NCBI GenBank assembly: GCA_046758005.1
Contig: JBHHZJ010000004.1
Span: forward strand, 2,766 to 66,765
Origin: Kiloniellaceae bacterium
GTDB lineage: Bacteria; Pseudomonadota; Alphaproteobacteria; Kiloniellales; J153
Direction: 5' to 3'
DNA length: 64,000 nt
Part shown: positions 41,918 to 58,187 of the stretch, one piece after another
Numbering within the stretch: position 1 is the stretch's first letter
How the letters are laid out: every line of letters begins with the position of its first letter
Notes under the pieces: model-generated
The model's database searches: none
Told to the model about the DNA's origin: nothing
Seen by the model: the letters and a program-made list of their open reading frames with translations, nothing else
Made by a program: the position numbers and the translations under genes

Positions 41918-43402
41918 CTACGACACGCCTGGCGCCATCCGGTGAACGATCTCGGCCAAGCGCTTGATGCCCGGGGCGATCTTTTCGGCCGGAATCGAGG
42001 AAAAGCCGAGCCGGAAGTAGTTGCGCGGCGGGTTGGCGGCGGAAAAGAAGATCGAGCCGGGCTCGATCACGATCCCGTCCTGCAACGCCGCGCGCGCCAG
42101 ATGCTCTGCGTCCAGCTCTTCCGGTCCGCGCACCCAGTAGCTCGTGCCGCCGAAGGACGGGGTCGTGGCGCTGTCCGGCAGGTAGCGGCCCAGCGCCTCG
42201 CCGAGCGCCTCCCAGCGGCTGTGATACACGCGCTGCAGGCGGTGAACCAGGGCATCGTAGTATCCGCCGGAGACCAACAGCGCCACCGTCCGCTGATTGT
42301 TGGACGGCGGGTGGCGCAGGATCAGGCGCCTGAGCAGCCGGGCCTCCCTTATGAATTGGGCGGAGGCGACCAGATAACCGATGCGCAGGCCGGGCGCTAG
42401 GCTCTTCGAAAAGGAGCCGACGTAGATCACCGACTGGTCCTTGTCCATGGACTTCAGGGCCGACGTGGGCGAACTGACGAAGTTGGCTTCCGCCTCGTAG
42501 TCGTCCTCGACGACGGAGAAACCGTGGCGGCTGGCCATGTCGAGCAGGGCGACCCGACGCTCCATGGGCATGGTCACCGTGGTCGGCGACTGGTGGCTCG
42601 GCGTGACGTAGACGCAGTCGCAGCGCTGCAGGGCGCGGCCCACGGCCATGCCGCCATCGTCCACCGGGATCGGACGCAGGCGCGCCCCGGTCAGGGCGAA
42701 GATGTTGCGCGCGTCGACGTAACCGGGATCCTCGACGCCGACCGTGGTCTTGGGTCCGGCGAGCAGGTGGGCGACCAGGTAAAGCGCGTTCTGCGCCCCC
42801 ATGGTCATCAGGATCTCGTCGGGTCCCGCGCGTATCCCGCGCCGGGGCAGGACGCGTGTGCGCACCTCCTCGATGAGCACGGGGTCGTCCTCGTCGAAGC
42901 TGTCCTCGGTCCAGCGGTGGATCGCCTGCACGCCGAGCGCCTGCCGGGAGCAAATGCGCCAGGCGGCCACCGGGAACAGCGCCGGGTCGGTCTGCCCGTA
43001 GATGAACGGGTACGGATATTGGCGCCAGTTCTTGGGCTTGCTGAGCTGGCGCTGATCCGAGGGATGGATTTGCAGGCGTCGCTGCCAGTCGGGGGCACTG
43101 CGCGCCTCGCTCGCCTGCTGCGACGGTGCGGAGGTCGGCGCCCGGCCGGCCAGCATCTCCGTATTGACAAAGTAGCCGACGCGCTCGCGCGAGACCAGGA
43201 AACCCTCGTCGGCGAGGGCCTGGTAGGCTAGGACCACGGTGTTGCGCGACATCCCCAGGGCGTGCGCCAGCCGGCGGCACGAGGGAAGCGGATCGTCAGG
43301 CGGCAGCCGGCCGTCGAGGATCGCTTCGACGAGGTGCCGGCGCAGCTGCGCCTGCAGCCCGACCTCGCCGTCATGGCGGACCGGAAAGATAAGCTCGCGC
43401 AC
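41918..43402 (-). CDS. MocR-subfamily GntR regulator (wHTH plus PLP aminotransferase-like domain), TauR-like
   Basis: wHTH LPSCRRLAHALGMSRNTVVLAYQALADEGF. Fold-type I domain with SFSKSLAPGLRIGY (PLP Lys). The GTG at 43402 gives 494 aa. The longer track ORF is rejected. Confidence 0.85.
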   Translation of the reverse strand: MRELIFPVRHDGEVGLQAQLRRHLVEAILDGRLPPDDPLPSCRRLAHALGMSRNTVVLAYQALADEGFLVSRERVGYFVNTEMLAGRAPTSAPSQQASEARSAPDWQRRLQIHPSDQRQLSKPKNWRQYPYPFIYGQTDPALFPVAAWRICSRQALGVQAIHRWTEDSFDEDDPVLIEEVRTRVLPRRGIRAGPDEILMTMGAQNALYLVAHLLAGPKTTVGVEDPGYVDARNIFALTGARLRPIPVDDGGMAVGRALQRCDCVYVTPSHQSPTTVTMPMERRVALLDMASRHGFSVVEDDYEAEANFVSSPTSALKSMDKDQSVIYVGSFSKSLAPGLRIGYLVASAQFIREARLLRRLILRHPPSNNQRTVALLVSGGYYDALVHRLQRVYHSRWEALGEALGRYLPDSATTPSFGGTSYWVRGPEELDAEHLARAALQDGIVIEPGSIFFSAANPPRNYFRLGFSSIPAEKIAPGIKRLAEIVHRMAPGVS

Positions 43403-43536
43403 TCCCGACCTCGATCCTCGCCCTGGCCTCACTCTGGTGGCCCGGCTGGCCCCAAGGGGCCACTGGCCATTATCATACGGCCCGGAGACGCGCCCGAACA
43501 AGCCGACCGTGGCTGGCCGGGACCAGGCAATGACGG

Positions 43537-44031
43537 TCACAACCGGGCGCGGGCGATGGCCTGAAAGTGCCGGACGGCCGCCGATCCCTCGGTTTGGCAC
43601 CAGGCGCGGAACCCGCCGAGCCCGCGGTTGGCCCATTCCCGGTCGGCGGCGACCCAACCGGCGATGCGCTGCGCCTTGGCTTGCTCCGGGGTCAGACCAT
43701 AGTGCGCCGTCAGTTGGGCCAGTTCGCGCCGGAAACCGAATTCGACCTCGGGCGTGAGCACGCCGCAGTAGCTCGTCACGGCGTAGTCATAGACCACGTC
43801 GCGCAGGCTCCGCGCCCCGGACTCAGCCCGGTACGCGGCCGCAAGCACCAGGGCAGCGCCCAGGACCGGCCGCAGCAGCGCCGAGATCCGGCGGCGCTTT
43901 CGGGTCACTCGGCCCGCTCCCGGGGCGGGCCCGCCACCGCCGGCGTCCTCGTGAGCGCGAAAAAAACGAATGCCGTTCCGACAGTTGCCCAATGTCCGGG
44001 CGTTCAGCATACGCACCTCCCGTACTGGCAT
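43537..44031 (-). CDS. Hypothetical exported/anchored protein (start uncertain; GTG at 43908 plausible)
   Basis: Contains RKRRRISALLRPVLGAALVLAAAYRA (signal-like), then a roughly 95-aa domain with two Cys. No family recognised. Confidence 0.4.
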   Translation of the reverse strand: MPVREVRMLNARTLGNCRNGIRFFRAHEDAGGGGPAPGAGRVTRKRRRISALLRPVLGAALVLAAAYRAESGARSLRDVVYDYAVTSYCGVLTPEVEFGFRRELAQLTAHYGLTPEQAKAQRIAGWVAADREWANRGLGGFRAWCQTEGSAAVRHFQAIARARL

Positions 44032-44518
44032 TTCGGCCCTCCGGCGCCAGGCTTGGAATCAGGCCGGGGCGAGGCAATCGAGGATCGCGAAACCGGGCAC
44101 GCCGTCCTCGCGTTCGCCGCTATGCATCGCGATCTTAACACCGGCGCGCCGCGAATGTGTCGCCACGCGGGCCTTGGCCCCACGCAAAATGTGCAATTGG
44201 CCCTAGATTGCCTGGAGCCGGACCTCTACTCTGATTACGCGGGTGAGAAACCCGTGCCGGGCGGTGGTGCGGGCAACGACAAACGGTTGTCGTTCAGCCC
44301 GACGGAAACGGCTGGGACGTGTGTCGAACGTGTGGCGGCAAAAAAAGGGCCATGCGACGATTCCAGGGAGGCGTGTGCGGCGGCGATTATTGCGCGAAGG
44401 CTTCAACGCACAAGCGCCGTTCGGCGCACGGAGAGAGCGAACCGCGGGCGTTGCTGTGCCGTGAGACGTCGGGCTCGGTGCGACAGGAACCAACCAGCAA
44501 CAAACAGGGAGCGATATC

Positions 44519-45694
44519 GTGACCAAGATAAGCAAATCTCGAACCAGCAGTGAGCTCACGCAGCGTGCGGCCAGGGCCTTCACCCGCCGCACGCTCATGA
44601 AGGGCGCCGCCGCGGCGGGCGCCGTGGCGGCCGTCGGCCCGTTCGTAATCGGCGCCGAGGCGCGTGCGGCCGCGCGCGAGCTCAAGGTCATGATCTGGTC
44701 GGACTACATCCCGGACGAATTCAAGGACAAATTCGAGTCGAAGACCGGCCTGACGCTCAAGGTCACCGGCTACGGCTCGAACGAGGAGCTCATCAACAAG
44801 ATCAAGGCCACCAAGGGCCGCGGCTTCGACCTGATCGGGCCGACCTCGGTCCGCATGCTGCAGTGGAAGGACCTGGCACTGCTCCAGCCCTGGGACATGA
44901 GCCGGGTACCCACGGACCGCATCCTCAAGCCGATGCTGCAAACCTCTATCGATCACGGCAGTTGGGACGGCAAGAATTACCACCTGCCGTACCTGTGGGG
45001 CACCGAAGCGCTGGCCTGGCGCACCGACAAGTGGTCGCGCGATTACAGGGACCTCACCTACGGCGACATGTACACCGAGGACATGAAGGGCAAGATCATG
45101 GGGCGGCCTCATTCGATGATGCTGACCATGGGGCTCTACCTCGACCGCACGGGCCGGCTGCCGACCAACCGCATGCTCGACGCCTACAAGGACGAGGAAA
45201 ACATGCGGCGCATCTGGACCGAGATCACCAAGTTCGCGGTCGAACACAAGCCGTGGGTCAAACAGTTCTGGAACGACGCGGACGCCCAGATCAACGGCTT
45301 CATGCAGAACGACGTGGTCCTGGGCCAGTGCTGGGACGGGCCGCCGCTGCGCCTGAAGGCGGAGGGCAAGCCCGTCACCTACATGGCGCCGATGGAAGGG
45401 GCGCTTACCTGGCTCGACGGTCTGTCAATGCCGATCGGGGCCAAGAACATCGACGGCGTCTACGCCTTCCTCGACGTTCTGTACACGCCGGAGAACGGCG
45501 GTCTGCTGGCCAACAAGACCGGGTACAACAGCGTCGCGGTGGACGCCGACAAGCACCTCTCCGCGCAGTCGCAGAAGAACTTCCGCGAGGCCTATCCGCA
45601 GGATGCGTTGGAGAAGCTGTGGTGGTGGCCGCCGGAGCCGACGTGGTACGCCGGCATCCGCGCCGAGTACCGGGACAAGTTCGTCGCGGCGTAA
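44519..45694 (+). CDS. PotD/PotF-family periplasmic substrate-binding protein with a Tat-type signal
   Basis: GTG start, twin-arginine FTRRTLMKGAAAAGA. Body resembles polyamine/aminoalkyl-ligand SBPs (VMIWSDYIP..., YLWGTEALAWR). Confidence 0.85.
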   Translation: MTKISKSRTSSELTQRAARAFTRRTLMKGAAAAGAVAAVGPFVIGAEARAAARELKVMIWSDYIPDEFKDKFESKTGLTLKVTGYGSNEELINKIKATKGRGFDLIGPTSVRMLQWKDLALLQPWDMSRVPTDRILKPMLQTSIDHGSWDGKNYHLPYLWGTEALAWRTDKWSRDYRDLTYGDMYTEDMKGKIMGRPHSMMLTMGLYLDRTGRLPTNRMLDAYKDEENMRRIWTEITKFAVEHKPWVKQFWNDADAQINGFMQNDVVLGQCWDGPPLRLKAEGKPVTYMAPMEGALTWLDGLSMPIGAKNIDGVYAFLDVLYTPENGGLLANKTGYNSVAVDADKHLSAQSQKNFREAYPQDALEKLWWWPPEPTWYAGIRAEYRDKFVAA

Positions 45695-45791
45695 GGCCGC
45701 GCCGTCGCGCCCGGAGCGGGCGCCCCGGCCGCGCGGCCGGGGCGCCTGCCCGGCGTTCCCCTTGCGAGCGTAGAGGGAGGGGGAAGACCAC

Positions 45792-46883
45792 ATGAGCGCC
45801 GACGTCGAACTCGATCATGTGACCATCCGATTCGGCGACTTCACTGCGGTCGACGACGCCAACCTGCGCATCGAAGACGGGGAGTTCTTCAGCTTCCTCG
45901 GGCCGTCCGGCTGCGGAAAGACCACGATTCTGCGCGCCATTTCCGGCTTTCTCGACCCGAGCGAGGGAGAGGTCCGCATCGGCGGCCGCAACATGTTCGG
46001 CATCGGCCCGAACAGGCGGCCGACCGCGCTCATCTTCCAGAACCTGGCGCTGTTCCCGCTCATGTCGGTGGCCGAGAACATCGCCTTCGGGCTGGAGGTG
46101 CGCGGGGTCAGCAAGTACGAACGGCGCAAGCGGGCCGACGAGCTGCTCAACCTGATCGCGCTGACGGGACAGGGCGACAAGCTGGTCTACGAGCTTTCGG
46201 GCGGCCAACGGCAGCGCGTGGCCATCGCCCGGGCGCTGGCGGTGGAGCCGGAGGTGCTCTTGCTCGACGAGCCGCTCTCGGCGCTTGACCTCAAGCTGCG
46301 CCAACACATGCGCACCGAGCTCAGGGCCATCCAGAGGCGCGTCGGGATCACGTTCATCTACATCACGCACGACCAGGGCGAGGCACTCACCATGTCCGAC
46401 CGCATCGCGGTCATGAGCCAGGGCATCATCCAGCAGATCAGCGACGGCGCCACGATTTACGACGACCCCGCCACCGCCTTCGTTGCCTCGTTCGTCGGCC
46501 AGAACAACCCGTTTCAGGGCAAGGTGGCGCGCGCCGATGGCGACTTCGCCCTGATCGAGACCAAATTCGGCCCCCTGCGCGGACGTAACCGCCAGAGCTT
46601 GAAAGAGGGTGATGCCGGCATCCTGTTCATCCGGCCGGAAGCGCTGTCGCTCACCGACGGCGCCGCCAACGGCGAGAACGTGATTGAAAGCGCGGTGATC
46701 AACCAGGAATTCGAAGGCCAGTTCGTCCGGGTCTACCTGGAAGGCGAAGGATACAAGCCCATCGGCCTGTCGGTGACCAACGACGGCAGCAAGTCGCTGC
46801 CGCAGGTGGGGCAAACGGCGAAGGTCGCCTTCGAGGCCGGTCGTGCGGTCGTGCTACCGGCGGGGGCCTTGGCCGATGAGTGA
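45792..46883 (+). CDS. ABC transporter ATP-binding protein (PotA-like, with a C-terminal TOBE-type domain)
   Basis: Walker A GPSGCGKTT, signature LSGGQRQRVAIARAL, Walker B LLLDEPLSALD. Confidence 0.9.
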   Translation: MSADVELDHVTIRFGDFTAVDDANLRIEDGEFFSFLGPSGCGKTTILRAISGFLDPSEGEVRIGGRNMFGIGPNRRPTALIFQNLALFPLMSVAENIAFGLEVRGVSKYERRKRADELLNLIALTGQGDKLVYELSGGQRQRVAIARALAVEPEVLLLDEPLSALDLKLRQHMRTELRAIQRRVGITFIYITHDQGEALTMSDRIAVMSQGIIQQISDGATIYDDPATAFVASFVGQNNPFQGKVARADGDFALIETKFGPLRGRNRQSLKEGDAGILFIRPEALSLTDGAANGENVIESAVINQEFEGQFVRVYLEGEGYKPIGLSVTNDGSKSLPQVGQTAKVAFEAGRAVVLPAGALADE

Positions 46884-47886
46884 ATTCATCGGCCTCTTTC
46901 TGGCCGTGCTCCTGGCCCTTCTGGTGGCCCCGCACGTGCAGAAGCACGCCGATACCGTATGGACGGGCCTGACCAGATTCACCTTCGTCCAGAGAAACGG
47001 CGTCGCCCTGTCCACGTACCTGGTGCTGACGGTGGTGGTCTGGACCCTGTTCATGATCATCCTGCCGCAGATCTACATGGTGGACTTCTCCTTCCGGCAC
47101 AATCTGCTGCCGGCGGAGATCGGCGGGCCCAAGGACGTCTACACGTTGAAGAATTACGAGTACCTGATCTTCGGCCGGGCGGGCGACGAGGAGCTGTTCA
47201 ACGTCCTCCACCTGAAGGTATTCGGCCGGACCATCCTCGCCAGCGTCCTGGTCACCCTCTTCGACTTCGCCGTCTGTTACCCGATCGCCTACTACATGGC
47301 GCAGGTCGCCCGCGGCGGCAAATCCCGGCTTCTTGTGCTCTGTCTGATCCTGCCCTTCTGGGTCAACGAGATCCTGCGCGCCTTCGCGTTCCGGATCCTG
47401 TTCGGCACGGGCGGCGTCATCAACGCGGTGCTGACGGGACTCGGGTTGGTCGATCAGCCGATCGACTTCCTGAGGGCCGACGTGGGCCTCTATGCCGGCT
47501 TGAGCTACGCGTACATCCTGCTGATGATCTTCCCGATCTACAACGCGATCGAGAGCCTGGACCACAATCAGATCGAGGCGGCCCGCGATCTCGGCAGCCC
47601 CTGGTGGCGGATCCATTTCCGTGTCGTGATGCCGCACGCCAAGCCGGGTATCGCCTCCGGGTGCACGATGGTCTTCATGCTGTCCGCCGGCGCGCTTGCG
47701 GTCCCGCAGATCCTCGGCGGGCCGAGCAGCCTGTGGTTCACCCAGATCATCTATCAGTGGTTCAACACGGGCGGCAACTGGCCGCAGGGCTCCGCATACG
47801 CCTTTGTTCTGCTGGTGTCGTCCATCGTGTTCGTGCTGGCCGTGATGCGGATCTTCAAGGTCAAGCTGGGGGAGATCGCGAAATGA
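46876..47886 (+). CDS. ABC transporter permease (PotB-like)
   Basis: Polytopic protein with the EAA loop region IEAARDLGSPWWRIHFRVVMP. The start overlaps the ATPase stop by 8 nt. Confidence 0.85.
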   Translation: MSEFIGLFLAVLLALLVAPHVQKHADTVWTGLTRFTFVQRNGVALSTYLVLTVVVWTLFMIILPQIYMVDFSFRHNLLPAEIGGPKDVYTLKNYEYLIFGRAGDEELFNVLHLKVFGRTILASVLVTLFDFAVCYPIAYYMAQVARGGKSRLLVLCLILPFWVNEILRAFAFRILFGTGGVINAVLTGLGLVDQPIDFLRADVGLYAGLSYAYILLMIFPIYNAIESLDHNQIEAARDLGSPWWRIHFRVVMPHAKPGIASGCTMVFMLSAGALAVPQILGGPSSLWFTQIIYQWFNTGGNWPQGSAYAFVLLVSSIVFVLAVMRIFKVKLGEIAK

Positions 47887-48785
47887 GGTCCGCGACCGTC
47901 ATGAAGGTCATGGTCGGCTTCTACATCGTGCTGTTCTTCGGCTACCTGTTCGGCCCCCTGGTCATGATGGGGACCGCCGCTTTCAACAACAGCTCCTTCC
48001 CCCAGGTGACGCCGTGGGAAGGATTTACCCTTAGGTGGTTCGGAGAGATCGTGCGGCAAAGCAACATGGTCGAGGGCATCACCAACAGCCTGTGGATCGG
48101 CCTGGGCGTGGTCTTCCTCGCGGTGCCCATCGGCCTGGCCGCCGCGCTGATGATGACCCAGATCTACGAGCGGGTCCGTCCCATCTATTACACCATCGTG
48201 GTCTCGCCGGTGCTGACGCCGGGCGTGATCCTCGGGATTTCGACCCTGGTGTTCTGGGACAAACTGGGCACCCTGGCCCAAGCGGAGTACGAGTCCCTTT
48301 ATTACAATGGGATGTTCCTGACGATCATCGGCCAATCCACCTTCATTTCCGCCTATTGCATGCTCGTGTTCCTGGCCCGGCTGCAGCGCTTCGACCGGAC
48401 CCAGGAGGAGGCCGCCCTGGACCTCGGCGCGACCCACGCCCAGGTGTTCTGGAAGATTCTGATCCCCTTCCTCAGGCCGGCGATTTTCTCCGCCGCGGTC
48501 CTGGCGTTTTTGACCTCGTTCGAGAACTACAACACGACCGTGTTCACCATCCAGGCGGACAGTACGCTCACCACCGTGCTGGCCGGCAAGGTCAGGCTGG
48601 GCACCAAGCCGGACATCAGCGCGCTCGCCGTGATCATCGTCGCGATCACGCTGCTTGGGGCGGTGACGCACGAGATCATGCGCCGGCGCGAGATGGCCAA
48701 GCAAGAAGTGGCGCGGGAAGCCGCGAAACGGGCCGAGGCCGCCGCGGACATGCAACTCGCGGCGCGGCCCCTCACCGCCTCGTAG
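47883..48785 (+). CDS. ABC transporter permease (PotC-like)
   Basis: EAA loop QEEAALDLGATHAQVFWKILIPFLRP. ATGA overlap with the upstream permease. Confidence 0.85.
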   Translation: MRSATVMKVMVGFYIVLFFGYLFGPLVMMGTAAFNNSSFPQVTPWEGFTLRWFGEIVRQSNMVEGITNSLWIGLGVVFLAVPIGLAAALMMTQIYERVRPIYYTIVVSPVLTPGVILGISTLVFWDKLGTLAQAEYESLYYNGMFLTIIGQSTFISAYCMLVFLARLQRFDRTQEEAALDLGATHAQVFWKILIPFLRPAIFSAAVLAFLTSFENYNTTVFTIQADSTLTTVLAGKVRLGTKPDISALAVIIVAITLLGAVTHEIMRRREMAKQEVAREAAKRAEAAADMQLAARPLTAS

Positions 48786-49195: not shown

Positions 49196-49427
49196 ACGCC
49201 GAACTTCTCTGATGGGGCGCCCGCGACGGTTCGGCGGCTGCGCAGCCGGATCACGACTTTCTCGGAAAAAATCACGACTTTGTGATCGCCGTCACTGCGG
49301 GTTCGCCCGCGCCTCCCAAAATAGCGAGAGCAGATAACCGATCCTGCCGGTGTGGTTCCCGGTGAAGGCCGCGCCGAACGCACTCCGGTCTGACATGAGC
49401 CGGGGAGAAGTTACGGGAGGTTTGTCA

Positions 49428-51134
49428 ATGGGTACGATCGAAGATCTCACTCCTTGGATCGGCGCGTCAATCGTCGTCGCCGTCGCGATTTCCCACTTCA
49501 ACGCTCCGCCGCCGCCACGGCCGCACCTGCCCAAGGGCGTGCCCCGTTTGGTGGGCACCATGGTCAAGTGGTTCAAGGCCGGGGATGAGCGTGCCGGGAG
49601 CCTGCTCGCTTACTATCCGCCGCCGCGCGCGAACACGACCCTGCTCAAGTTCGAGCTTTGCCGGGCGGCTTACGTGGTGCTCGGGCTCGTAATCTACCTC
49701 ACTCTTAACGCGGCCCCGATCGTGCGCGGACAGTTCGAACAGATCATGGTTATCGCCAGCGGCGTCATTCCGGGTGCCGAGGCCATTTCCTTGGCGCAGG
49801 CCGGACCCCTGGTCCTCGGTTTCATCGTCGCGGTGATCCTTCCCGCCATGCCGCCGTTCAAGGGCGCCGACGAGAGCATACGGCGCGCGCTCTACGAGGG
49901 CGCTTCGATCCCGGCCCGCCAGCTTCGCGAGAGCTCCCGCTTGAAAGAGGCGGAGTACGAGCCGGATCAACAGCTGTTGGAACGGGTGCGCCACAAGCTG
50001 GCGCCCGAGGGCTTCGATCCCTCGGACATCGTCTACAAGCCGGGGAAACCGACGACCCGCTCCCTGTGGACCAAGTGCTGCCTGCTGATCCAGCACATGC
50101 GGGATTGGCAAGTGGACAACAGGTACTCGACCGCATTCGCCGTGCTCGCGGAGCCGGACGGGGGGACCCGAAGCATCGAGCGGATCGAGCAGGCCCACGC
50201 CGCGCTCATGGGCGATGCGAAGGCGTGTCTCAAGGCCCTGCGCGAGCAGCGCCACGCCCCCGAGACCGCCGAGCGCGAGGAGAAATTCCGCCGGAATTGC
50301 AAGGACCTCCTGCTCATGGTCTACCATCTGCTCAGCCGTGTCTCGCTTCACTCCCATTACAGCGACCGGGAGCGTGTCCGCTGTATGGGCGAGATCGGCT
50401 TCCGGTTGCAGCCGGATCGGGGCGGGCCCGTCCCGGACGGCCACGACCTGGCGTACCTGGGCATCCTGTTGGGGGCAGTCCTTATGCTGCCGTTGTCGTT
50501 CGTGCTCGGCTTCACCAAGGCTTTGATCATCGCGGCGATCATGTATTCCGTCGTGCTCATGCCCGTGATGCTGGCGCACTGGTTCCACGGCTTCACCGGT
50601 GGCGCGCAACGGCTGGCGTTCCCGATCGTCTCGGGCCTCGCGGCCGCCTCGGTGGGCGCGGCGATCGGTATAGTCTGCTTCGAGTCCGGCGATCTCATGG
50701 CGGGCTGGGAGCGCTACGCGGCAAGGTCCTATCCGTGGAGCGCGCTGCACGCCCTGCTCTCCGCGCTGATCGCCTGGCGCATGGGGGCCGGCAGCTACCC
50801 CGACAGCAGAAGACTCACGGGACTCGCCCGCTACAGGGAATGGGGCAGCCTGCGTGACGCGGCGATTTTCGCCGTAGCGGTTGCGGTGTTGATGACGCAG
50901 TACGTCCTGCCGAGGTTCGCCACGCTGATCGACAAGCCGGACATCGCGACCGACCCGGTGCGCGTGGCCATCGGCACACTGGCCGCCGCCGTCATCGGCT
51001 TCCTGGTGCCCACATGGTACCGCGCAAACCTCCGCCGGATGGCGACGCACGCCGATACCGCCCCGCCGGCGCCGGATCGTGTTGATCCGGCCCCGCCGCA
51101 CGCCTCGCCGGAACGGCTGCGGCCCGCGGCGTGA
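49428..51134 (+). CDS. 568-aa polytopic membrane protein of unknown function
   Basis: SD GGGAGG before the ATG at 49428. N-terminal TM segments, a roughly 200-aa charged helical central region, and a C-terminal bundle of TM helices. No motif recognised. Confidence 0.6.
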   Translation: MGTIEDLTPWIGASIVVAVAISHFNAPPPPRPHLPKGVPRLVGTMVKWFKAGDERAGSLLAYYPPPRANTTLLKFELCRAAYVVLGLVIYLTLNAAPIVRGQFEQIMVIASGVIPGAEAISLAQAGPLVLGFIVAVILPAMPPFKGADESIRRALYEGASIPARQLRESSRLKEAEYEPDQQLLERVRHKLAPEGFDPSDIVYKPGKPTTRSLWTKCCLLIQHMRDWQVDNRYSTAFAVLAEPDGGTRSIERIEQAHAALMGDAKACLKALREQRHAPETAEREEKFRRNCKDLLLMVYHLLSRVSLHSHYSDRERVRCMGEIGFRLQPDRGGPVPDGHDLAYLGILLGAVLMLPLSFVLGFTKALIIAAIMYSVVLMPVMLAHWFHGFTGGAQRLAFPIVSGLAAASVGAAIGIVCFESGDLMAGWERYAARSYPWSALHALLSALIAWRMGAGSYPDSRRLTGLARYREWGSLRDAAIFAVAVAVLMTQYVLPRFATLIDKPDIATDPVRVAIGTLAAAVIGFLVPTWYRANLRRMATHADTAPPAPDRVDPAPPHASPERLRPAA

Positions 51135-51211: not shown

Positions 51212-51589
51212 CTACGACATCCTTGGCGGATCGCTGAAAAACTCCCCGATCACTTCTTTCTTGGTGTCGATCGAGACCTGGGACAGCGCCATGGCCTTGC
51301 CGTGCTGGGTCCAGCCCATCTTGAGGTAGACGGTCTTCTCCAGGCGCAGGATGTCCATGTAGGCGCGGTAATGGGCGATATCGAGGTGGGCGGTCGCGGT
51401 CTGCGCCTCGAAATCGCCGGTCGGCTTGGGCGGCTCGTCCGCGCCGTAGGCCTCGAACACGGCGACGGCCCGGTTGGCGTTGTCGTCGTCGTACAGGCGC
51501 ACGGTGATGTAGGAGTGCGCGTGGTCCGCGGCCCGCTTGGTGAGCACCTGGACCGTGTACCTGGTGATTCGGTGAACCGTGATGGACAT
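51212..51589 (-). CDS. 125-aa soluble protein of unknown function (last gene of the minus-strand catabolic operon)
   Basis: Clean ORF with coding-like composition (MSITVHRITRYTVQVLTKRAADHAHSYITVRLYDDD...), 114 nt downstream of the aminotransferase. Confidence 0.5.
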   Translation of the reverse strand: MSITVHRITRYTVQVLTKRAADHAHSYITVRLYDDDNANRAVAVFEAYGADEPPKPTGDFEAQTATAHLDIAHYRAYMDILRLEKTVYLKMGWTQHGKAMALSQVSIDTKKEVIGEFFSDPPRMS

Positions 51590-51703: not shown

Positions 51704-53023
51704 TCAGTGCGTCTTCAGCACCTCGCGCAGCTTGGTGAACAACTCGTCGATGTGCCTTTCTTCGCAGATGAGCGGTGGTGAAACCAGCACGGTGTCGCCG
51801 GTCAGCTTGACGATGAGCCCGGCGTCGTAAAGCTGCTGCGTCACCGCCAACCCGCGCAGGCCGGGCGCGTCCTTGGGTGCGAGGTCGATGCCGCCCAGCA
51901 TGCCGTAGCCGCGGATGTCGGTCACCACGGCCAGGTCCTGCAGCGCGTACAGGGCCTCGAGGAAGGACGGTGACATCCTGGCCGCTCTCTCCACGAGCTG
52001 CTCCCGCTCGAAGATGTCCCGGGTGCTGATGGCCGCCGCCGTCGCGACCGGGCAGCCGGAGTAGGTGTAGCCGTGGAACAGCTCGACCGAGGTCTCCGGC
52101 ACGGCGCTCGTGATCGTCTCGTAGATCCGGTCGCTCACAGCCACCGCGCCCATGGGCACGACACCGTTGGTCAGCGCCTTGGCCATGGTGATCATGTCCG
52201 GCACGGTGCCGAAGCTGTCGGAGCCGAACTGTTTTCCCGTCCGTCCGAAGGCGCAGATCACCTCGTCGAAGATGAGCAGGATGTGGTGCCGGTCGCAGAT
52301 CTCCCGCAGACGGCTGAGATAGCCCTTGGGCGGGACCAAGCAGCCCGTCGAGCCCGCGATCGGCTCGACGATGCAGGCGGCGATGGAATCGGGGCCGTGC
52401 AGGTCCACGAAGCGTTGCAGGTCATCGGCGAGCTCCGCCCCGGTCTCGGGCTGACCCACGGTAAACCTGTGTTCGGGCAGGAGGGTGTGACGCAGGTGCA
52501 GGACGCCGGGCAGGCCCAGCCCGAAGGCCTGCTTGTTCTTCACCATGCCGGCGACCGAAACCCCGCCGAAGTTGACGCCGTGGTAGGCGCGCTCGCGCCC
52601 GACCAGGCGCATGCGTTGCCCCTCGCCGCGGGCCCTGTGGTAGGCGAGCGCGATTTTGAGCGCGCTGTCCACGGCCTCGGAGCCGGAATTGGCGAAGAAC
52701 ACGTGGTTCAGGTCGCCCGGAGTGATCGCCGCAAGGCGCCGGGACAGCTCGAAGCTGCCGGGGGTGCCGTACTGGAACGGCGGGGCGTAATCCAGCTCGA
52801 TCAGCGTGCCCTGCACGGCCTCGGCGATCTCGCGCCGCCCATGGCCGGCGGCCACGCAGAACAGGCCCGCGGAGCCGTCGAGGACCTTGTCGCCCTTGTG
52901 GGTCGTGTAGTACATGCCCTCTGCGCCGACGATGAGGCGCGGGTTCGCCTTGAAATGCCGGTTCGCGGTGAACGGCATCCAGTGCTGCTCGAGCGAGTTG
53001 GGGATCTTCGGTATCGTCGTCAT
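51704..53023 (-). CDS. Class III (omega) aminotransferase, pyruvate-dependent type (taurine- or beta-alanine--pyruvate transaminase-like)
   Basis: HWMPFTANRHF..., SGSEAVDSALK and DEVICAFGRTG blocks closely resemble omega-amino acid:pyruvate aminotransferases. Confidence 0.9.
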   Translation of the reverse strand: MTTIPKIPNSLEQHWMPFTANRHFKANPRLIVGAEGMYYTTHKGDKVLDGSAGLFCVAAGHGRREIAEAVQGTLIELDYAPPFQYGTPGSFELSRRLAAITPGDLNHVFFANSGSEAVDSALKIALAYHRARGEGQRMRLVGRERAYHGVNFGGVSVAGMVKNKQAFGLGLPGVLHLRHTLLPEHRFTVGQPETGAELADDLQRFVDLHGPDSIAACIVEPIAGSTGCLVPPKGYLSRLREICDRHHILLIFDEVICAFGRTGKQFGSDSFGTVPDMITMAKALTNGVVPMGAVAVSDRIYETITSAVPETSVELFHGYTYSGCPVATAAAISTRDIFEREQLVERAARMSPSFLEALYALQDLAVVTDIRGYGMLGGIDLAPKDAPGLRGLAVTQQLYDAGLIVKLTGDTVLVSPPLICEERHIDELFTKLREVLKTH

Positions 53024-53183
53024 GAGCGTGGCCTGTTCAGCGGGAGGTGCAGCCCGGACAGCTTAGTCTCGGGGGCCATTTGCGGCCTAGGACCAGTTCG
53101 CCGATTTCTTTGAGGCCAAGGGACCCGGCCCGGCCGGGGCTTCGTGTGGGCCAGGGCGCGCCCCCCCGGGCGCGCTCGCCCGG

Positions 53184-54491
53184 CTACCAGTACGCGAGCG
53201 CGTCCTTGTACAGGCCGGCCAGCTCGTCCTTGCTGATCGTCCGGGGCGCGTTGTCGAGCAGCCGCCTCTGCGGGAATGCAGCCGCGGCGAGCGCCGGGAT
53301 ATCGTCCGTGGTGTAGCCGACGCCGCCGATGCCGTTCGGCATCCCGGTGGTCTTCATGAGCGAGACGACCTGCCCAGCCAGCACCGCGCCGGCGTCCTCC
53401 TCCCCTGCCCCGCGGGTGTCCGCGCCCAGCCAGCTCGCGGCCTCCAGGTGGCGGTCCGGGCAGGCCGGCGCGGTGAACCGGAACACCGACGGCGCGTTGA
53501 CGATGACCGACATGCCGTGCGGCACGATCGGGCCGCTGTCCGGGTAGCCTTCCGGGTGGAACGCGCGGACCATACCCGAGACCGAATACGACATGCCGTG
53601 CGGCGCGTGGCAGCCGGCGTTGCCGAAGGCGATGCCGGCGAGCGTGGCGGCCCACATGAGCTGCGTGCGCGCCTCGTGATCGCCGGCGTCCTTGATCGCG
53701 CGAACCAGATAATGGCCCAGGATCCGCAGCGCCTCCCGGCAGCCCAGGTCGCTCCACGGGTTGGCGCCCTGGCTCATGGGGCGCAGGCTCGGGCGCGCCG
53801 GCGCCTTGCGCTTGGCGTAGGCAAGCGCCGTATAGGATTCCAGGGCGTGAGACAGCACGTCGAAGGCGCTGGCCGCGACCACGTTTTTCGGCAAGGTGTA
53901 GGTGCAGGTCGGGTCGATGAGCGCCATGGTCGGGCGCAGGCGTCGGTGGACGATTCCCGTCTTGGCGTGCATCGACAGAAGATCGAAGATCGCGATGCCG
54001 GTGCATTCGCTGCCGGTCCCGGAGGTGGTCGGACAGGCGATGTGCGGCTTGAGCGGTCCCGGCACCGGCTGGCCCGCCCCGATTGGCGCGTTCACGTAGG
54101 TGAGCAAGTCCGCCGGAAACGTGGAGTAGAGGTTGGCCGCCTTGCAGGTGTCCATGACCGAGCCGCCGCCCACCGAGACGAACCCGTCGAATGCGCCCTC
54201 CCGGGCGAAGCGCGCCGCGGTCAGGAAGGACTCGTCGGTCGGCTCGACGCGCACCTCGTCGTAGACGACAACGTCGATCCCCGCCTGCTCGAGCGAGCGA
54301 CGGACGATGGCCGCATGCTCGAGGCCGGCCAGTACATTGTCCGTGATCAGCGCCGCGCGCTTGATGCCCAGCGCGGCCGCGTGGTCGCCCGCTTCGGCCA
54401 GGACCCCGCCGCCAAAGGCGATCGAAGAGGTGTCGACCGAGAAGGCGCCGTCCCCGCCCTCGGCCGGCGCGTAATAGTGACAGCAAACCAC
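53184..54491 (-). CDS. Iron-containing alcohol dehydrogenase (hydroxyacid-oxoacid transhydrogenase-like subgroup)
   Basis: [20 protein letters not shown], and a His cluster ([17 protein letters not shown]). Confidence 0.9.
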
Positions 54492-54519
54492 GATGGTATC
54501 CTACGCCGCCGCGCGCGTC

Positions 54520-55638
54520 TTACAAGTCCGCCGCCTCCTCGGGGGCCGTGTAGGGCAGTCCGTGCGCCGCGGCGACGGCCCTGTAGGTCACCTTCCCGAA
54601 GGCCACGTTGAGTCCGTTCTTCAGGTGCGGGTCGTCCGCGAGCGCCCGGCGGTAGCCCTTGTCGGCCAGGGCGAGGGTGAAGGGCAGCGTGGCGTTGTTG
54701 AGCGCGAAGGTCGAGGTGCGCGCGACCGCGCCGGGCATGTTGGTCACGCAGTAATGCACCACGCCGTCCTCGACGTAGGTCGGATCGGTGTGGTTGGTGG
54801 GCCGCGAGGTCTCCGAACAGCCGCCCTGGTCGATGGCGATGTCCACGAACACGGAGCCGGGGCGCATCCGCCGGACCATGTCGCGGGTGACGAGCTTGGG
54901 CGCCGCCGCTCCGGGAACGAGCACGGCCCCGACCACAAGGTCGGCGCCGATGACGTGGGTCTCGATCGAATCCACGGTCGAATAGATCGTGTTCAGCATC
55001 GGCCCGAACTGCAGGTCGAGCGCGTAGAGCCGCTCCAGGCTCTTGTCGATGACGGTGACGTGCGCTTCCATGCCCATGGCCATGCGCGCCGCGTTGGTCC
55101 CCGATACGCCGCCCCCGATGATGACCACGCGCGCCGCGGCCACGCCGGGAACGCCGCCGAGCAGCATGCCCGACCCGCCCTGTTCCTTTTCCAGGCAGTG
55201 GGCGCCGACCTGGACCGACATGCGGCCGGCGACCTCGCTCATGGGCGCGAGCAGCGGCAGGCCGCCGCGCGGGCTGGTCACGGTCTCGTAGGCGATGGCG
55301 ATGCAGCCGGACTCCATCAACCCGCGGGTCTGCGCCAGGTCCGGCGCCAAGTGCAGGTACGTGAACAACACCTGGCCCTCGCGCAGCATGGCGTATTCAC
55401 TGGCCAGCGGCTCCTTCACCTTCACGATCATGTCGGCCTTGGCGAAGATCTCCTCGGCGCTGTCGACGACCTCGGCGCCGGCGCCGCGGTAGGCCTCGTC
55501 GTCGAAACCGATGCCCGCCCCGGCGTTGCTCTCCACGATCACCGCCTGTCCGTGGTGCACCAGTTCGCGCACCGACGCCGGCACCAGGCCGACGCGGTAT
55601 TCCTCGACCTTGATCTCCTTCGGAACCCCTATGAGCAT
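54520..55638 (-). CDS. ald: Alanine dehydrogenase
   Basis: [19 protein letters not shown]-terminus and [14 protein letters not shown] Rossmann motif. 372 aa. Confidence 0.95.
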
Positions 55639-55709
55639 GGCCCTCGCTCTCCCCTCTGGTCACGGAACGTTCGAACGACGTTTCCATCCTGCGGCGCGGA
55701 ACGATCCTC

Positions 55710-58187
55710 TCACGCCCGCACGCGCTCGCCCTTCGGATCGTACAGCGGCCGTAGACTGGCGATTGCCGAGAATCGTTCGCCGGCGACCTCGATCTCGTAG
55801 CGCCCCGACTCGATGAAGGCGGCATCGACCCCGTCCGGGTGGCGGACGTAACCGAGGCCCACGGCGCGGCCGAGCGTGTGTCCGTAGTTGCCGGAGGTGA
55901 CGTAGCCGACGAGCGCGCCGTCGCGGTAGATCGGCTCGTTGTGGTAGAGCAAGGGCTCGGGGTCCTCCAGGGCGAACTGGACCAGTCGTTTCTTGACCCC
56001 CTGCTCCTTCTGGCGCAGCAGCGCCTCGCGGCCGATGAAGGGCACGTTCTTGTCGAACCGGCAGGCGAAGCCGAGACCGGCCTCGAGCGGCGTGTCCTCG
56101 TTCGTGATGTCGTGGCCCCAATGCCGGTAGGCCTTCTCCAGGCGGCAGGAGTCGAGTACGTGCATGCCGGCGAGCTTGAGGTCGAAGGCCTCGCCGCGGG
56201 CCAGGATCTCGTCGAATACGCCGCGGGCGAACTCGCTGGGCACGTAGATCTCCCAGCCCAACTCGCCGACATAGGTGATGCGCAGGGCGCGCGCCGTGGC
56301 GTAGCCGATGTCGATCTCCTGCGCGGCGCCGAACGCAAAGGCCTCGTTCGACAGATCGGCCTCGCTGACCTGGGATAGAAGCGCGCGGCTGTTCGGCCCC
56401 ATGAGCCCGAGAACGGCGTAGGCCGACGTCACGTCGGCCACCGTAACGCGGGCCTCCGGCGGGATGTTGCGCTCGAGCCAGTGCCGGTCGCGCCGCGCCA
56501 CGGCGGCCCCCGTGACCACCATGTAGCGGTCCTCGGCTAGGCGGGTCACGGTCAGGTCGGCCTCGATGCCGCCGCGCTCGTTGAGCCACTGGGTATACAC
56601 GACCTTGCCTGGGGGCACCGCCATGTCGTTGGCGCAGATGCGCTGCAGCACCGCTTCCGCGTCCGGCCCTTGGACCAGGAACTTTGCGAACGAGCTCTGA
56701 TCGAACAGCGCGACGGCCTCGCGCACCGCCCGGTGCTCGGCCGCCGCGTACGGGAACCAGTTCTGCCGCTTGTAGCTGTATTCGTACTTCGGCTCGACGC
56801 CCTGCGGCGCGAACCAGTTGGCCCGCTCCCAACCCGCCACTTCGCCGAAGCACGCGCCGTGCTCCTCGAGGCGCTCGTGCAGGGGCGAGGTGCGCACGCC
56901 GCGCGCCGTCTCGTACTGCCGATACGGCCAGTGCAGATCGTACAGCAAGCCCAGCGCCTCGGCGGCGCGGTGGAAAAGATAGACCCGGTTGTTCTGGAAC
57001 GGCTGCATGCGCCGAATGTCCAGCTCGGAAAGGTCGAAAGGCGCCTGCCCGCCGACAATCCATTCGGCGAGCGCCTTGCCGGCCCCGCCCGACGACTGGA
57101 TACCGATCGAGTTGAACCCGGCGGCGACATAGAAATTGCGCAACTCCGGGGCCTCGCCGAGCATGTAGCGGTTGTCCGGCGTGAAGCTTTCGGGCCCGTT
57201 GAAGAACTTGCGGATACCGACTTCCTGCAGGGCCGGGACACGGTGCATGGCGCCCTCGAGCACCGGCATGAAGTGATCCATGTCCTGCGGAAGCTCGTCG
57301 AAGCAGAAGTCCTCCGGGATGCCGTCCATGCCCCAGGGCTTGGCCTTGCGCTCGAAGGCACCGATCAGGAGCTTGCCGGCATCCTCCTTGTAATAGGCGC
57401 AGCCGTCCATGTCCCGCAGCACCGGCAGATCCGGCGCCACCTCGTCCATCGGCTCGGTCACCACGTAGAAGTGCTCGCAAGCGTGCAGCGGCACGTTCAC
57501 GCCGCACATCGAGCCGACCTCGCGCGCCCACATGCCGGCACAGTTGACGACATATTCCGCCTTGATGTCGCCGCGCCCGGTCTCGACCCCGGTGACCCGG
57601 CCGCCCGCCGTGGTGATTCCGGTGACCTTCGTATCCTCGCAGAGCCGGGCCCCGCCCATGCGCGCGCCCTTGGCCAGGGCCATCGCCGCGTCGGCCGGGT
57701 TGATCTGGCCGTCGTTTGGAAAATAGACGGCGCCCAAAACGTCGTCGACGTTGAGGATCGGATACCGCGCCCGTGCCTCCTCCGGCGTGATCAGCGCCAC
57801 CTCGACGCCGCAGACTTTCGCAAGGTCCGCGCTGCGCCGGTGTTCTTCCCAGCGCGCCTCGTTGGTCGCAATCCCGATGCTGCCGTTTTGCTTCAGGCCG
57901 GTCGCCTGCCCGGTTTCGTCTTCGAGCGATTTGAAGAGCGTCATCGAGTACCGGGCCAGACGCGTCAGCGTATAACCGCCCAGGACCTCGCGCACCAACC
58001 CGGCCGCGTGCCAGGTCGTGCCGCAGGTCAGTTTCTTGCGCTCCAGCAGCACCACGTCGCGCCAGCCCAGCTTGGTCAAGTGATAGGCCAGCGAGCAGCC
58101 AACGATTCCGCCGCCAATGATGACAACACGCGCTTCACTCGGTAACGGCTTCGTCACCGCAACGACCTCCCTTTTGGCACGCGGCAT
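55710..58187 (-). CDS. FAD-dependent oxidoreductase fused to a GcvT aminomethyltransferase domain (dimethylglycine/sarcosine dehydrogenase-like)
   Basis: VVIIGGGIVGCSLAYHL dinucleotide fold, then a DAO domain and a C-terminal folate-binding GcvT domain. 825 aa. Confidence 0.9.
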   Translation of the reverse strand: MPRAKREVVAVTKPLPSEARVVIIGGGIVGCSLAYHLTKLGWRDVVLLERKKLTCGTTWHAAGLVREVLGGYTLTRLARYSMTLFKSLEDETGQATGLKQNGSIGIATNEARWEEHRRSADLAKVCGVEVALITPEEARARYPILNVDDVLGAVYFPNDGQINPADAAMALAKGARMGGARLCEDTKVTGITTAGGRVTGVETGRGDIKAEYVVNCAGMWAREVGSMCGVNVPLHACEHFYVVTEPMDEVAPDLPVLRDMDGCAYYKEDAGKLLIGAFERKAKPWGMDGIPEDFCFDELPQDMDHFMPVLEGAMHRVPALQEVGIRKFFNGPESFTPDNRYMLGEAPELRNFYVAAGFNSIGIQSSGGAGKALAEWIVGGQAPFDLSELDIRRMQPFQNNRVYLFHRAAEALGLLYDLHWPYRQYETARGVRTSPLHERLEEHGACFGEVAGWERANWFAPQGVEPKYEYSYKRQNWFPYAAAEHRAVREAVALFDQSSFAKFLVQGPDAEAVLQRICANDMAVPPGKVVYTQWLNERGGIEADLTVTRLAEDRYMVVTGAAVARRDRHWLERNIPPEARVTVADVTSAYAVLGLMGPNSRALLSQVSEADLSNEAFAFGAAQEIDIGYATARALRITYVGELGWEIYVPSEFARGVFDEILARGEAFDLKLAGMHVLDSCRLEKAYRHWGHDITNEDTPLEAGLGFACRFDKNVPFIGREALLRQKEQGVKKRLVQFALEDPEPLLYHNEPIYRDGALVGYVTSGNYGHTLGRAVGLGYVRHPDGVDAAFIESGRYEIEVAGERFSAIASLRPLYDPKGERVRA

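Follow-up and report, generated by a model that had tools for sequence, protein, structure and literature searches.

A putative TauR-type aminosulfonate regulon in a Kiloniellaceae genome, with a DAO-GcvT flavoenzyme among its members

Marine animals and red algae contain taurine and N-methyltaurine as abundant osmolytes, and these supply marine bacteria with significant amounts of carbon, nitrogen, sulfur and one-carbon units. The TauR regulons and the Tpa-Ald-Xsc-Pta pathway of taurine dissimilation are well known, as are the DAO-GcvT demethylases that act on dimethylglycine, sarcosine and 4-methylaminobutanoate. To our knowledge, and in the literature searched, the only bacterial route described for N-methyltaurine releases methylamine; this (N-methyl)taurine dehydrogenase route was reportedly found by Weinitschke et al. 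in 2006 in Alcaligenes faecalis and Paracoccus versutus. Here we analysed 64,000 nucleotides from the genome of a marine Kiloniellaceae bacterium (assembly GCA_046758005.1, contig JBHHZJ010000004.1, positions 2,766 to 66,765; this whole stretch is hereafter called the window), which encode a MocR regulator, a PotD-type ATP-binding cassette (ABC) importer, a class-III aminotransferase (AT3), an alanine dehydrogenase (AlaDH), an iron-type alcohol dehydrogenase (Fe-ADH) and a DAO-GcvT fusion. We hold, with slightly more belief than doubt, that this region represents one half, for uptake and amine processing, of a TauR-type C2-aminosulfonate regulon, and is wired to the xsc-tauE-ackA/pta genes lying about 10 kb away.

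The TauR protein of R. capsulatus binds direct repeats whose consensus is CTGGACYTAA, as quoted by Suvorova and Rodionov (PMC5320631) and used throughout this work, and a comparable motif is shared by all the TauR regulons reconstructed there, its repeats being spaced by two or three helical turns. The members tabulated in that study are Xsc, Pta or AckA, TauE, Ald, DmsC/HybA/BisC, Tpa and 'Tpa-related' aminotransferases, with an extra COG665 (DAO-family) oxidoreductase listed for Jannaschia; Pta and AckA are reported never to occur together in one regulon. Compared with these Tpa-Ald-Xsc-Pta/AckA-TauE systems of Rhodobacterales, Rhizobiales, Burkholderiales and Rhodococcus, the window has the same type of regulator, a CTGGACYTAA-like direct-repeat operator, the same Xsc, Pta/AckA and TauE-family exporter, and an AlaDH partnering a pyruvate-dependent class-III aminotransferase. 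It differs in having a PotD-fold ABC importer where the known systems use TauABC or TRAP TauKLM, an AptA/BauA-type AT3 in place of the usual Tpa-clade enzyme, and an Fe-ADH of the hydroxyacid-oxoacid transhydrogenase (HOT) type and a DAO-GcvT as operon members. Unlike the pattern in PMC5320631, AckA and Pta are both present, and both adjoin xsc-tauE (33336-35783).

Open reading frames (ORFs) of the whole window were filtered by third-position GC (GC 65-70%) and annotated with Pfam and NCBIfam (Table 1). All the genes listed in a preliminary description of this DNA are present where it had placed them, and the three parts that it singled out as non-standard, the PotD-type transporter, the transhydrogenase-like Fe-ADH and the DAO-GcvT fusion, are all real. 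Xsc, AlaDH, AckA, Pta and TauE were identified with scores that reach or exceed curated thresholds. Besides gene identities, we computed the conservation of catalytic residues and the presence of an operator that is shared between genes, conserved in other loci and found upstream of both xsc and mocR.

The operator was recognised as a low-GC word that precedes three genes on the coding strand, reading CAATTGGCCCTAG before the gene of the substrate-binding protein (SBP) of the importer, AACTGGTCCTAG before AT3 and CAACTGGCCCTAG before DAO-GcvT. The pattern AAYTGGYCCTAG, with at most one mismatch allowed, has exactly three matches in the 64 kb, all on the coding strand upstream of these three genes, against a chance expectation of 0.32, and none of 100 shuffles reached three. 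The word is part of a bipartite direct repeat, [T/G]TGGCC[T/C]CA[A/C]-N13-[C/T]TGG[C/T]CCTAG, whose 23-nt register is identical in all three sites. As a non-circular test, a position weight matrix (PWM) was built from the three sites and scanned on both strands, and the next three matches after the training sites lay upstream of an MBL-fold gene, xsc and mocR, the last ranking sixth over the 128 kb of strand scanned. Across 200 Markov-1 random windows, matches scoring at least 15 averaged 0.12 per window, no window held three or more, and on leave-one-out every training site ranked straight after the other two. The box 2 sequences of the window agree with CTGGACYTAA at 7-8 of 10 positions, and box 1 of the xsc site (CTGGCCCTAA) at 9 of 10. 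A TauR-like site was not seen ahead of pta. Since DAO-GcvT has its own operator, it is to be seen as a regulon member and not as a bystander, and a shared regulon that includes xsc is very likely. The Tpa-Ald-Xsc-Pta logic and the link to xsc/pta put forward in the preliminary description are thereby borne out, by a TauR-like operator common to the SBP gene, AT3, DAO-GcvT, xsc and mocR and conserved in related loci.

The adjacent MocR is presumably the protein that binds this operator, and the site upstream of its own gene points to possible autoregulation. Its assignment to the TauR-type regulators holds: it combines GntR and Aminotran_1_2 domains and is 46-52% identical to the MocRs of tau/xsc clusters, including those divergent from tauABC-tauXY...pta on S. 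meliloti pSymB (46%), in a Caballeronia xsc-pta-IclR-GMC dehydrogenase-MFS cluster (50%) and in the chromid copies of Burkholderia and P. phymatum (51-52%). Its best annotated homologues are those of tau/xsc clusters and documented tau replicons. A comparison of the winged helix-turn-helix domains of MocRs from taurine and beta-alanine contexts was of no use, as the two were too similar to discriminate.

Related loci, designated here by L numbers, comprised 80 reference-genome loci with DAO-GcvT orthologues (58-84% identity), in which all the neighbours were clustered, and 80 metagenome loci with an Fe-ADH 66-79% identical to that of the window. When the same matrix was run over 160 fetched loci (2.0 Mb), 18 matches scored at least 20, and 17 of the 18 were intergenic. 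Such sites lay upstream of DAO-GcvT in L001, L002, L004, L013 and L087; upstream of AT3 in 8-9 loci (L004, L085, L087, L089, L090, L103, L113 and L114, plus L097 at a contig end); upstream of AlaDH where no DAO-GcvT precedes it (L011 and L103); and 328 bp upstream of the SBP gene in L004. In L049 and L053, two Gammaproteobacteria metagenome-assembled genomes (MAGs), an element scoring 18-18.6 stood upstream of the Xsc gene beside MocR, with CTGGCCCTAG or TTGGCCCTAG as box 2. Among the fetched loci, the matrix scan found no TauR-like site upstream of genes of the DAO-GcvT clade represented in the window (clade B, as opposed to the paralogous clade A) when these stood in betaine or phosphonate contexts. 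This distribution suggests that the core co-regulated module is AT3 with AlaDH/Fe-ADH, to which DAO-GcvT is added as an accessory first gene in some of the genomes, as would be expected if the enzyme extended the range of substrates to an N-methylated analogue.

DAO-GcvT is the sole DAO-domain protein among the annotated ORFs of the window, and all of its four domains scored above the Pfam cut-offs (DAO 255, FAO_M 64, GcvT 286 and GcvT_C 80 bits). The fusion architecture had been recognised correctly, while the length has to be amended from 825 to 815 aa, with the start at 58157 set by a 100% identical database protein (from a Kiloniellaceae MAG) and a good ribosome-binding site. The architecture is identical to that of dimethylglycine dehydrogenase (DMGDH) and sarcosine dehydrogenase (SARDH), dimethylglycine oxidase (DMGO) and 4-methylaminobutanoate oxidase. 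Relative to DMGO (1PJ5) and human DMGDH (5L46), the flavinylated His (in WHAAG), both residues of the His/Tyr dyad (in CEHFYV and AYYKE) and the folate Asp (in GGIEADLTV) are all conserved in the protein; they correspond to H48, H225, Y259 and D552 of DMGO, in a numbering that follows the reference list of PMC5082570 and our own counting on the 1PJ5 alignment. With the four domains and these residues conserved, tetrahydrofolate (THF)-linked N-demethylation is the expected chemistry.

The window enzyme nevertheless differs from the DMGDH/DMGO family in scoring only 533 bits to mammalian DMGDH and 478 to DMGO, in its setting, under a TauR-like operator and in an operon in which AlaDH follows at 71 bp and Fe-ADH at a further 28 bp, with no betaine genes nearby, and in the loop straight after the flavinylated His, which reads REVLGGYT. 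This loop (residues 56-63; window ~57970-57990, minus strand) occurs in the clade in three discrete versions, REVLGxYT in the window group and its sister group, RaMLYSsN in a group associated with TmpA/PhnWX, and GQLRATxN in all the others, and it may be a specificity loop. We rejected it as a marker of substrate class, because the operator is present in L013 and L011 although their loop is of the GQLRAT form, and because it has no counterpart in DMGDH/DMGO. Substrate specificity cannot be read from the DAO-GcvT sequence.

In the scheme that we propose, the regulation is derived from sequence, and the biochemistry and all the substrates from protein families and gene context. A MocR/TauR-like regulator would bind the bipartite repeat upstream of the importer operon, the DAO-GcvT-AlaDH-FeADH operon, AT3, xsc, the MBL-fold gene and mocR, with taurine-type compounds as putative effectors and substrates. 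The Tat-exported PotD-fold SBP and its ABC partners would import taurine and/or N-methyltaurine; DAO-GcvT would oxidise the N-methyl group and pass the C1 unit to THF, yielding taurine and 5,10-methylene-THF; AT3 would convert taurine and pyruvate to sulfoacetaldehyde and alanine; and AlaDH would regenerate the pyruvate and release ammonium. Xsc would then turn sulfoacetaldehyde into acetyl phosphate and sulfite, which AckA/Pta and the TauE-family exporter would handle, and the HOT-type Fe-ADH would interconvert sulfoacetaldehyde and isethionate, as an entry point or an overflow.

That the substrate is a C2-sulfonate of the taurine type seems likely to us; that DAO-GcvT acts on N-methyltaurine itself has even odds at best, and in this respect the substrate suggested in the preliminary description, whose xsc link and parts were otherwise borne out, is still something we infer. 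Three considerations lead to it: the GcvT/folate module would be pointless for a primary amine, the product of DAO-GcvT must feed a co-regulated transaminase, and the window has only the B paralogue, presumably the one for the monomethyl step, whereas L049 and L053 have B and A after the aminotransferase. In those two loci (~4900-15000), Pta-Xsc-MocR is divergent from a class-III aminotransferase-DAOGcvT(B)-DAOGcvT(A) string with gaps of 60-85 bp, an arrangement that would fit the stepwise demethylation of N,N-dimethyltaurine to taurine.

TauXY is taurine dehydrogenase, and its TauY subunit is a DAO-family flavoprotein. As proposed for the window, the (N-methyl)taurine dehydrogenase/TauXY route takes the carbon to sulfoacetaldehyde and on through Xsc and Pta. 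It cleaves the C-N bond on the ethanesulfonate side, however, and frees methylamine, while the GcvT domain of the window enzyme predicts transfer of the methyl group to methylene-THF with taurine as the other product. Neither TauX (PF07366) nor TauY, nor any betaine, phosphonate or TauABC gene, was found with Pfam and NCBIfam among the annotated ORFs of the window. Our literature searches returned nothing relevant on the demethylation of N-methyltaurine, of dimethyl- or trimethyltaurine, or on xsc together with DMGDH. In the literature searched, including the work on N-methylated 2-aminoethylphosphonate (N-methyl-AEP), a folate-linked demethylase within a taurine regulon is not described, nor are an N-methyltaurine-to-taurine route, a PotD-fold aminosulfonate importer or a HOT-type Fe-ADH in this context. 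If the proposal is true, folate-linked demethylation to taurine would route the methyl carbon into one-carbon metabolism, the DMGDH family would gain a new substrate class and aminosulfonate uptake a new type of importer, and the commonness in marine metagenomes of 'DMGDH-like' genes, annotated as generic FAD oxidoreductases, would be explained. It is a logical rather than a startling extension of what is known, and the operator makes it sharply testable, with six sites, one regulator and four enzymes.

Several results weigh against these conclusions, starting with the operator. Its pattern AAYTGGYCCTAG is a post hoc definition, the score of the xsc site is no higher than 15.3, and TauR-like boxes were not found in the promoter regions of L077 and L093/L094, those upstream of Xsc included. 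Nor were they found in the MocR/AT3 promoter regions of L039/L045, so that outside the Kiloniellales-type loci and L049/L053 the link is one of gene adjacency only. As for the flavoenzyme, its active-site motifs are nearly invariant across the clade and across genomic contexts. Clade B orthologues (58-71% identity) have MttB-family methyltransferases, GbcA-like Rieske oxygenases and BetA as neighbours, mostly with paralogue A in tandem, and others in the same range lie within 2-aminoethylphosphonate (AEP) clusters, with PhnW, PhnX or PhnY, TmpA and PbfA all above the NCBIfam cut-offs. Further clade B members adjoin MocR-AT3-MmsA (L039/L045). This diversity of contexts implies that the clade as a whole is not sulfonate-specific, and the sister group of the window enzyme (73-76% identity, with the same variable loop) has neither sulfonate neighbours nor the operator. 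AT3 belongs to the beta-alanine/omega-amino-acid:pyruvate clade, outside the usual Tpa clade, and is only ~30% identical to the aminotransferase adjoining Xsc-MocR in L049; taurine gives a relative activity of only 1.1% in a related enzyme that is 87% identical to the structure 4B98. Finally, MocR is slightly closer (55%) to the MocR beside the AT3-MmsA, beta-alanine-type module of L039/L045 than to those of the tau/xsc clusters.

Gene neighbourhood alone left two readings of DAO-GcvT: it could be a generic sarcosine/dimethylglycine dehydrogenase, or a demethylase that different 2-aminoethyl-X pathways have recruited. The first, an ordinary enzyme of betaine and one-carbon catabolism to which the sulfonate link would be irrelevant, agrees with the scores to DMGDH and DMGO, with the retention of all the catalytic residues in motifs that barely vary by context, and with orthologues (58-69%) found in MttB-A-B, A-B-Rieske(GbcA-like)-LysR and BetA contexts. 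Clade A is more DMGDH-like (610 bits, against 533 for clade B), so that clade B would fit the monomethyl, secondary-amine step and could be the sarcosine-step enzyme. We nevertheless consider this reading unlikely. Betaine neighbours, one of the two features that would have spoken for it, were indeed found elsewhere; the other, independent expression, was not, as the TauR-like operator ~70 bp upstream of DAO-GcvT is kept in five other loci and the same element serves AT3, the SBP gene and xsc. Moreover, AlaDH and Fe-ADH follow closely and have an operator of their own where DAO-GcvT is missing (L103), the annotation of the 64 kb includes no betaine-pathway gene, and the glycine formed would have no role in the neighbouring reactions.

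The second reading can be put more generally, and in this form we advance it tentatively, with rather more doubt than belief. The DAO-GcvT clade would consist of widespread folate-linked demethylases for N-monomethylated 2-aminoethyl-X compounds, recruited repeatedly beside the cognate transaminase pathways, here as an N-methyltaurine route under TauR that would be new, with the methyl group saved as methylene-THF and a new PotD-fold aminosulfonate importer supplying the substrate. Alongside sarcosine, candidate substrates may be N-methyltaurine, N-methyl-AEP and possibly N-methyl-beta-alanine, and the cognate pathways may be AT3/Tpa-like with Xsc, PhnW with PhnX or PhnY, and BauA-like with MmsA. 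The known FAD oxidoreductases PbfB, PbfC and PbfD extend PhnW-PhnX catabolism of AEP to N-methyl-AEP (PMC10590968). As in the window, an accessory DAO-family flavoenzyme is thus added to a transaminase pathway for the N-methylated analogue, but the Pbf enzymes are without GcvT and yield the aldehyde and methylamine directly, while the window enzyme is predicted to yield the primary amine and a folate-bound C1 unit. Given the DAO-GcvT genes in AEP clusters, a folate-linked N-methyl-AEP demethylase may exist as well. These clusters were seen in L014-L018, L023, L027, L051 and L067, in the arrangements LysR beside PhnW-PhnX-DAOGcvT-TmpA-HD oxygenase, PhnW-PhnY-DAOGcvT-TmpA, LysR beside PhnW-PbfA-DAOGcvT, and PhnX-PhnW-A-B.

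Like SarD and TauF, which are Fe-ADHs reducing sulfoacetaldehyde to isethionate, the Fe-ADH of the window belongs to the iron-ADH superfamily, and its closest named relatives are of the HOT (ADHFE1) type. It is only 40-45% identical to the proteins that PGAP names hydroxyacid-oxoacid transhydrogenase, and it reaches no NCBIfam equivalog (ErcA 199 bits, GbsB 191 bits, and SarD 182 bits against a cut-off of 700). In the metagenome loci it is linked to AT3 in seven cases and to AlaDH in several, and in L093/L094 it is divergent from Xsc, the Xsc of L094 being 83% identical to that of the window. Many more distant orthologues adjoin GlcD-like FAD oxidases, as expected for transhydrogenase/2-hydroxyacid chemistry; no GlcD-like oxidase or D-2-hydroxyglutarate dehydrogenase partner was found in the window. 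Action of this enzyme on sulfoacetaldehyde/isethionate is conceivable, if somewhat doubtful. The context of L085, the richest AT3/Fe-ADH locus, with a pyrroloquinoline quinone (PQQ) dehydrogenase/cytochrome c cluster and a TauE-like permease, was considered as a clue and was not decisive.

AT3 passes the NCBIfam equivalog 'omega-aminotransferase AptA' with 628 bits against a cut-off of 500, and its nearest structures, 4B98 (445 bits) and 3A8U (435 bits), are beta-alanine/omega-amino-acid:pyruvate transaminases. The enzyme is of the pyruvate type, as had been described, but falls in the beta-alanine clade and not in the Tpa clade, and only from its regulation do we infer that it is a taurine transaminase. 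These findings would suit a regulon of the OapR or BauR style for carboxylate omega-amino acids (beta-alanine, gamma-aminobutyrate (GABA) or their N-methyl forms), in which N-methyl-beta-alanine or 4-methylaminobutyrate would be converted to the primary amine, then by AT3 and AlaDH to malonate or succinate semialdehyde, and by Fe-ADH to 3-hydroxypropionate or 4-hydroxybutyrate. OapR-type MocR regulons for omega-amino-acid:pyruvate aminotransferases have been described (PMC5320631), and L039/L045 hold a classic beta-alanine module in which MmsA accompanies the related MocR and an AT3 60% identical to ours. The poor use of taurine by a close relative of the AT3 structures, the action of HOT enzymes on hydroxy acids, the GlcD-like oxidases accompanying many Fe-ADH orthologues and the label '4-methylaminobutanoate oxidase' given by JGI to many DAO-GcvT orthologues all point the same way. 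Against this stand an operator that fits the TauR consensus and is found again upstream of xsc, in the window as in L049/L053, the lack of such boxes in the MocR/AT3 regions of L039/L045, the tau/xsc clusters that house the best annotated MocR homologues, and Xsc, TauE and DmsC genes as recurrent neighbours in the closest loci. No MmsA- or GabD-type semialdehyde dehydrogenase was found in the window. We therefore regard a carboxylate regulon as quite improbable, and retain the aminosulfonate reading.

The SBP of the importer has the twin-arginine motif FTRRTLMKG and shares with PotD/PotF the fold, the ABC partner set and the proximal aromatic/acidic amine cage, keeping W34, Y37, W229, W255, D257 and Y293 (PotD numbering), with E36 changed to D. 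It differs in being Tat-exported, in its linkage to MocR and, in L077, to Xsc, and in scoring far under the PotD and PotF cut-offs of NCBIfam (103 against 582 and 87 against 636, respectively). In the alignment to 8Y5H/1POT, D168 of PotD is replaced by His and E171 by Met; in PotD these two acidic residues bind the additional (second and third) amines. Their replacement speaks for a mono-amine ligand whose tail is non-cationic rather than for a polyamine, and the SBP is accordingly predicted to bind a mono-amine zwitterion such as taurine or N-methyltaurine. No SBP of the NMT1/SsuA or DctP type was found in the window, and in place of a known taurine importer only the PotD-fold ABC system is present. 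In L077, a homologous SBP (47%) and ATPase (62%) are divergent from an Xsc(76%)-DUF29-DAOGcvT(A)-EamA-DAOGcvT(B) string. With L049/L053, this makes two further lineages in which clade B adjoins Xsc, and together with the divergent Xsc and Fe-ADH of L093/L094 these loci count as independent co-localisation in favour of the sulfonate reading.

The PotD/PotF fold with its WSDY amine-cage motif also raises the case of polyamine or diamine catabolism of the putrescine/spermidine type, with DAO-GcvT acting on an N-methylated polyamine, and polyamine:pyruvate transaminases are indeed among the relatives of AT3 (9J4Z, 301 bits), while a homologous MocR-SBP cassette in Paroceanicella adjoins a copper amine oxidase. 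We regard it as very improbable, in view of the two replaced acidic residues, the low PotD/PotF scores and an operator shared with xsc; there are also no aminoaldehyde dehydrogenase or gamma-glutamyl pathway genes. The Paroceanicella cassette lies on the P. profunda plasmid pD4M1A (L083, 6150-14450), where a MocR (44% identical) stands beside SBP-ATPase-permease-permease (SBP 48%) next to the oxidase, annotated as 'tyramine oxidase', and it suggests that the importer family serves primary-amine catabolism more widely. The order of the ABC cassette is the same in roseobacter plasmids; as clues to function these SBP homologues were set aside, being stand-alone cassettes with uninformative neighbours, except in Paroceanicella.

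A separate observation concerns the leader of the importer operon. Its operator lies ~312 nt ahead of the SBP start (window 44207-44518), and 328 nt ahead in L004, which implies either a long leader or an unrecognised element. An Rfam scan of the whole window returned one tRNA only, and no riboswitch in the 312-nt leader.

In the xsc block, xsc is genuine by its equivalog score; tauE and ackA come after it, pta is convergent with them, and the true start of pta probably lies downstream of 35783. The MBL-fold gene with the best held-out site follows the HIBADH-family gene that is divergent from xsc, and this HIBADH protein scored under every NCBIfam cut-off, that of sulfolactaldehyde reductase included. 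HIBADH and TauE flank the DAOGcvT-AlaDH-FeADH string in L021, L075, L086, L088 and L091. In L021-type loci the string directly adjoins genes for an ABC ATPase, a DmsC-family protein, TauE and the same HIBADH, all of which lie 20-30 kb off in the window; this indicates that the transporter, AT3, MocR and Xsc blocks form a variable segment of a conserved chromosomal region. AlaDH follows DAO-GcvT in Kiloniellales loci, and only Kiloniellales-type genomes have the full HflX-IMPase-DAOGcvT-AlaDH-FeADH(-AT3) arrangement.

Within the window, the ABC operon on the plus strand and the string from DAO-GcvT to AT3 on the minus strand are convergent, and are hence two units and not a single operon. A sigma-70 promoter scan of 43-60.6 kb found no promoter-like sites, and terminator-like sites occurred at chance level, so that operon limits were not informed by either. 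The start of mocR was refined to near 43402, giving a protein of ~494 aa.

Table 1 Features of the window, with TauR-like sites
Feature	Position	Strand	Evidence or remark
MBL-fold gene (Lactamase_B_3)	28474-29397	-	Pfam
TauR-like site, MBL-fold gene	29505-29537	-	PWM 18.6, best held-out; 108 bp upstream
HIBADH-family dehydrogenase	29547-30418	-	Pfam; divergent from xsc
TauR-like site, xsc	30590..30622	+	PWM 15.3; 117 bp upstream, same orientation; box 1 CTGGCCCTAA
xsc	30740-32458	+	TIGR03457, 908 bits vs cut-off 676
tauE-family permease	32516-33316	+	Pfam TauE
ackA	33336-34541	+	Pfam Acetate_kinase
pta	34557..35783 (ORF limits)	-	PTA_PTB 363 bits, domain from ORF residue 83
mocR	41918..43402 (ORF 41918-43657)	-	Pfam GntR + Aminotran_1_2
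TauR-like site, mocR	43423..43455	+	PWM 15.0; ~20 bp upstream of mocR start
Small conserved ORF, 164 aa as called	43537..44031	-	Between mocR and SBP promoter; no Pfam match
Operator, importer operon	44174..44206	+	TTGGCCCCAC-N13-TTGGCCCTAG; ~312 bp upstream of SBP start
SBP	44519..45694	+	SBP_bac_8; PotD-type; Tat motif
ABC ATPase	45792-46883	+	Pfam ABC_tran + TOBE_2
Permease 1	46843-47886	+	BPD_transp_1
Permease 2	~47883-48785	+	BPD_transp_1
594-aa multi-pass membrane protein	49350..51134	+	No Pfam/NCBIfam match; system membership uncertain
125-aa conserved protein 3' of AT3	51212..51589	-	No Pfam match
AT3, class-III pyruvate-type omega-aminotransferase	51704..53023	-	NCBIfam AptA
Operator, AT3	53087..53119	-	TTGGCCTCAA-N13-CTGGTCCTAG; ~63 bp upstream
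Fe-ADH, HOT-type	53184..54491	-	Pfam Fe-ADH + ADH_Fe_C
AlaDH	54520..55638	-	TIGR00518, 508 bits vs cut-off 392
DAO-GcvT, 815 aa	55710..58157 (ORF 55710-58187)	-	Pfam DAO, FAO_M, GcvT, GcvT_C
Operator, DAO-GcvT	58229..58261	-	GTGGCCTCAC-N13-CTGGCCCTAG; ~70 bp upstream

Three of the ORFs in Table 1, at 43537-44031 (minus strand), 49350-51134 (plus strand) and 51212-51589 (minus strand), were absent from the preliminary description. Homologues of the 164-aa ORF (69-73% identical) lie directly 3' of AT3 in the metagenome loci L085 (16491-16862) and L089 (~6122-6388), where a short MetE-like (Meth_synt_2) protein follows, and its product is a regulon-associated protein without an assigned family. 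The 125-aa protein has a 73% identical homologue at the same position in L004, and the 594-aa membrane protein had no homologue in any fetched locus.

Beyond the uptake, amine and xsc genes, the rest of the 64 kb is made up of housekeeping and signalling genes, two of which have unusual features. The first (23582-25804, minus strand) encodes a 740-aa protein in which a complete FtsZ (Tubulin and FtsZ_C) is followed by C-terminal Sel1 repeats, an unusual architecture for FtsZ that is kept, as a fusion of ~685 aa, in L021 and L075. The second (36867-40292, minus strand) encodes a 1141-aa signalling protein in which a SAM (sterile alpha motif) domain at the N-terminus is joined by adenylate/guanylate cyclase and AAA_16 ATPase domains and by TPR repeats, and sits between the xsc block and the MocR block, adjoining a HAMP histidine kinase (40385-41830).

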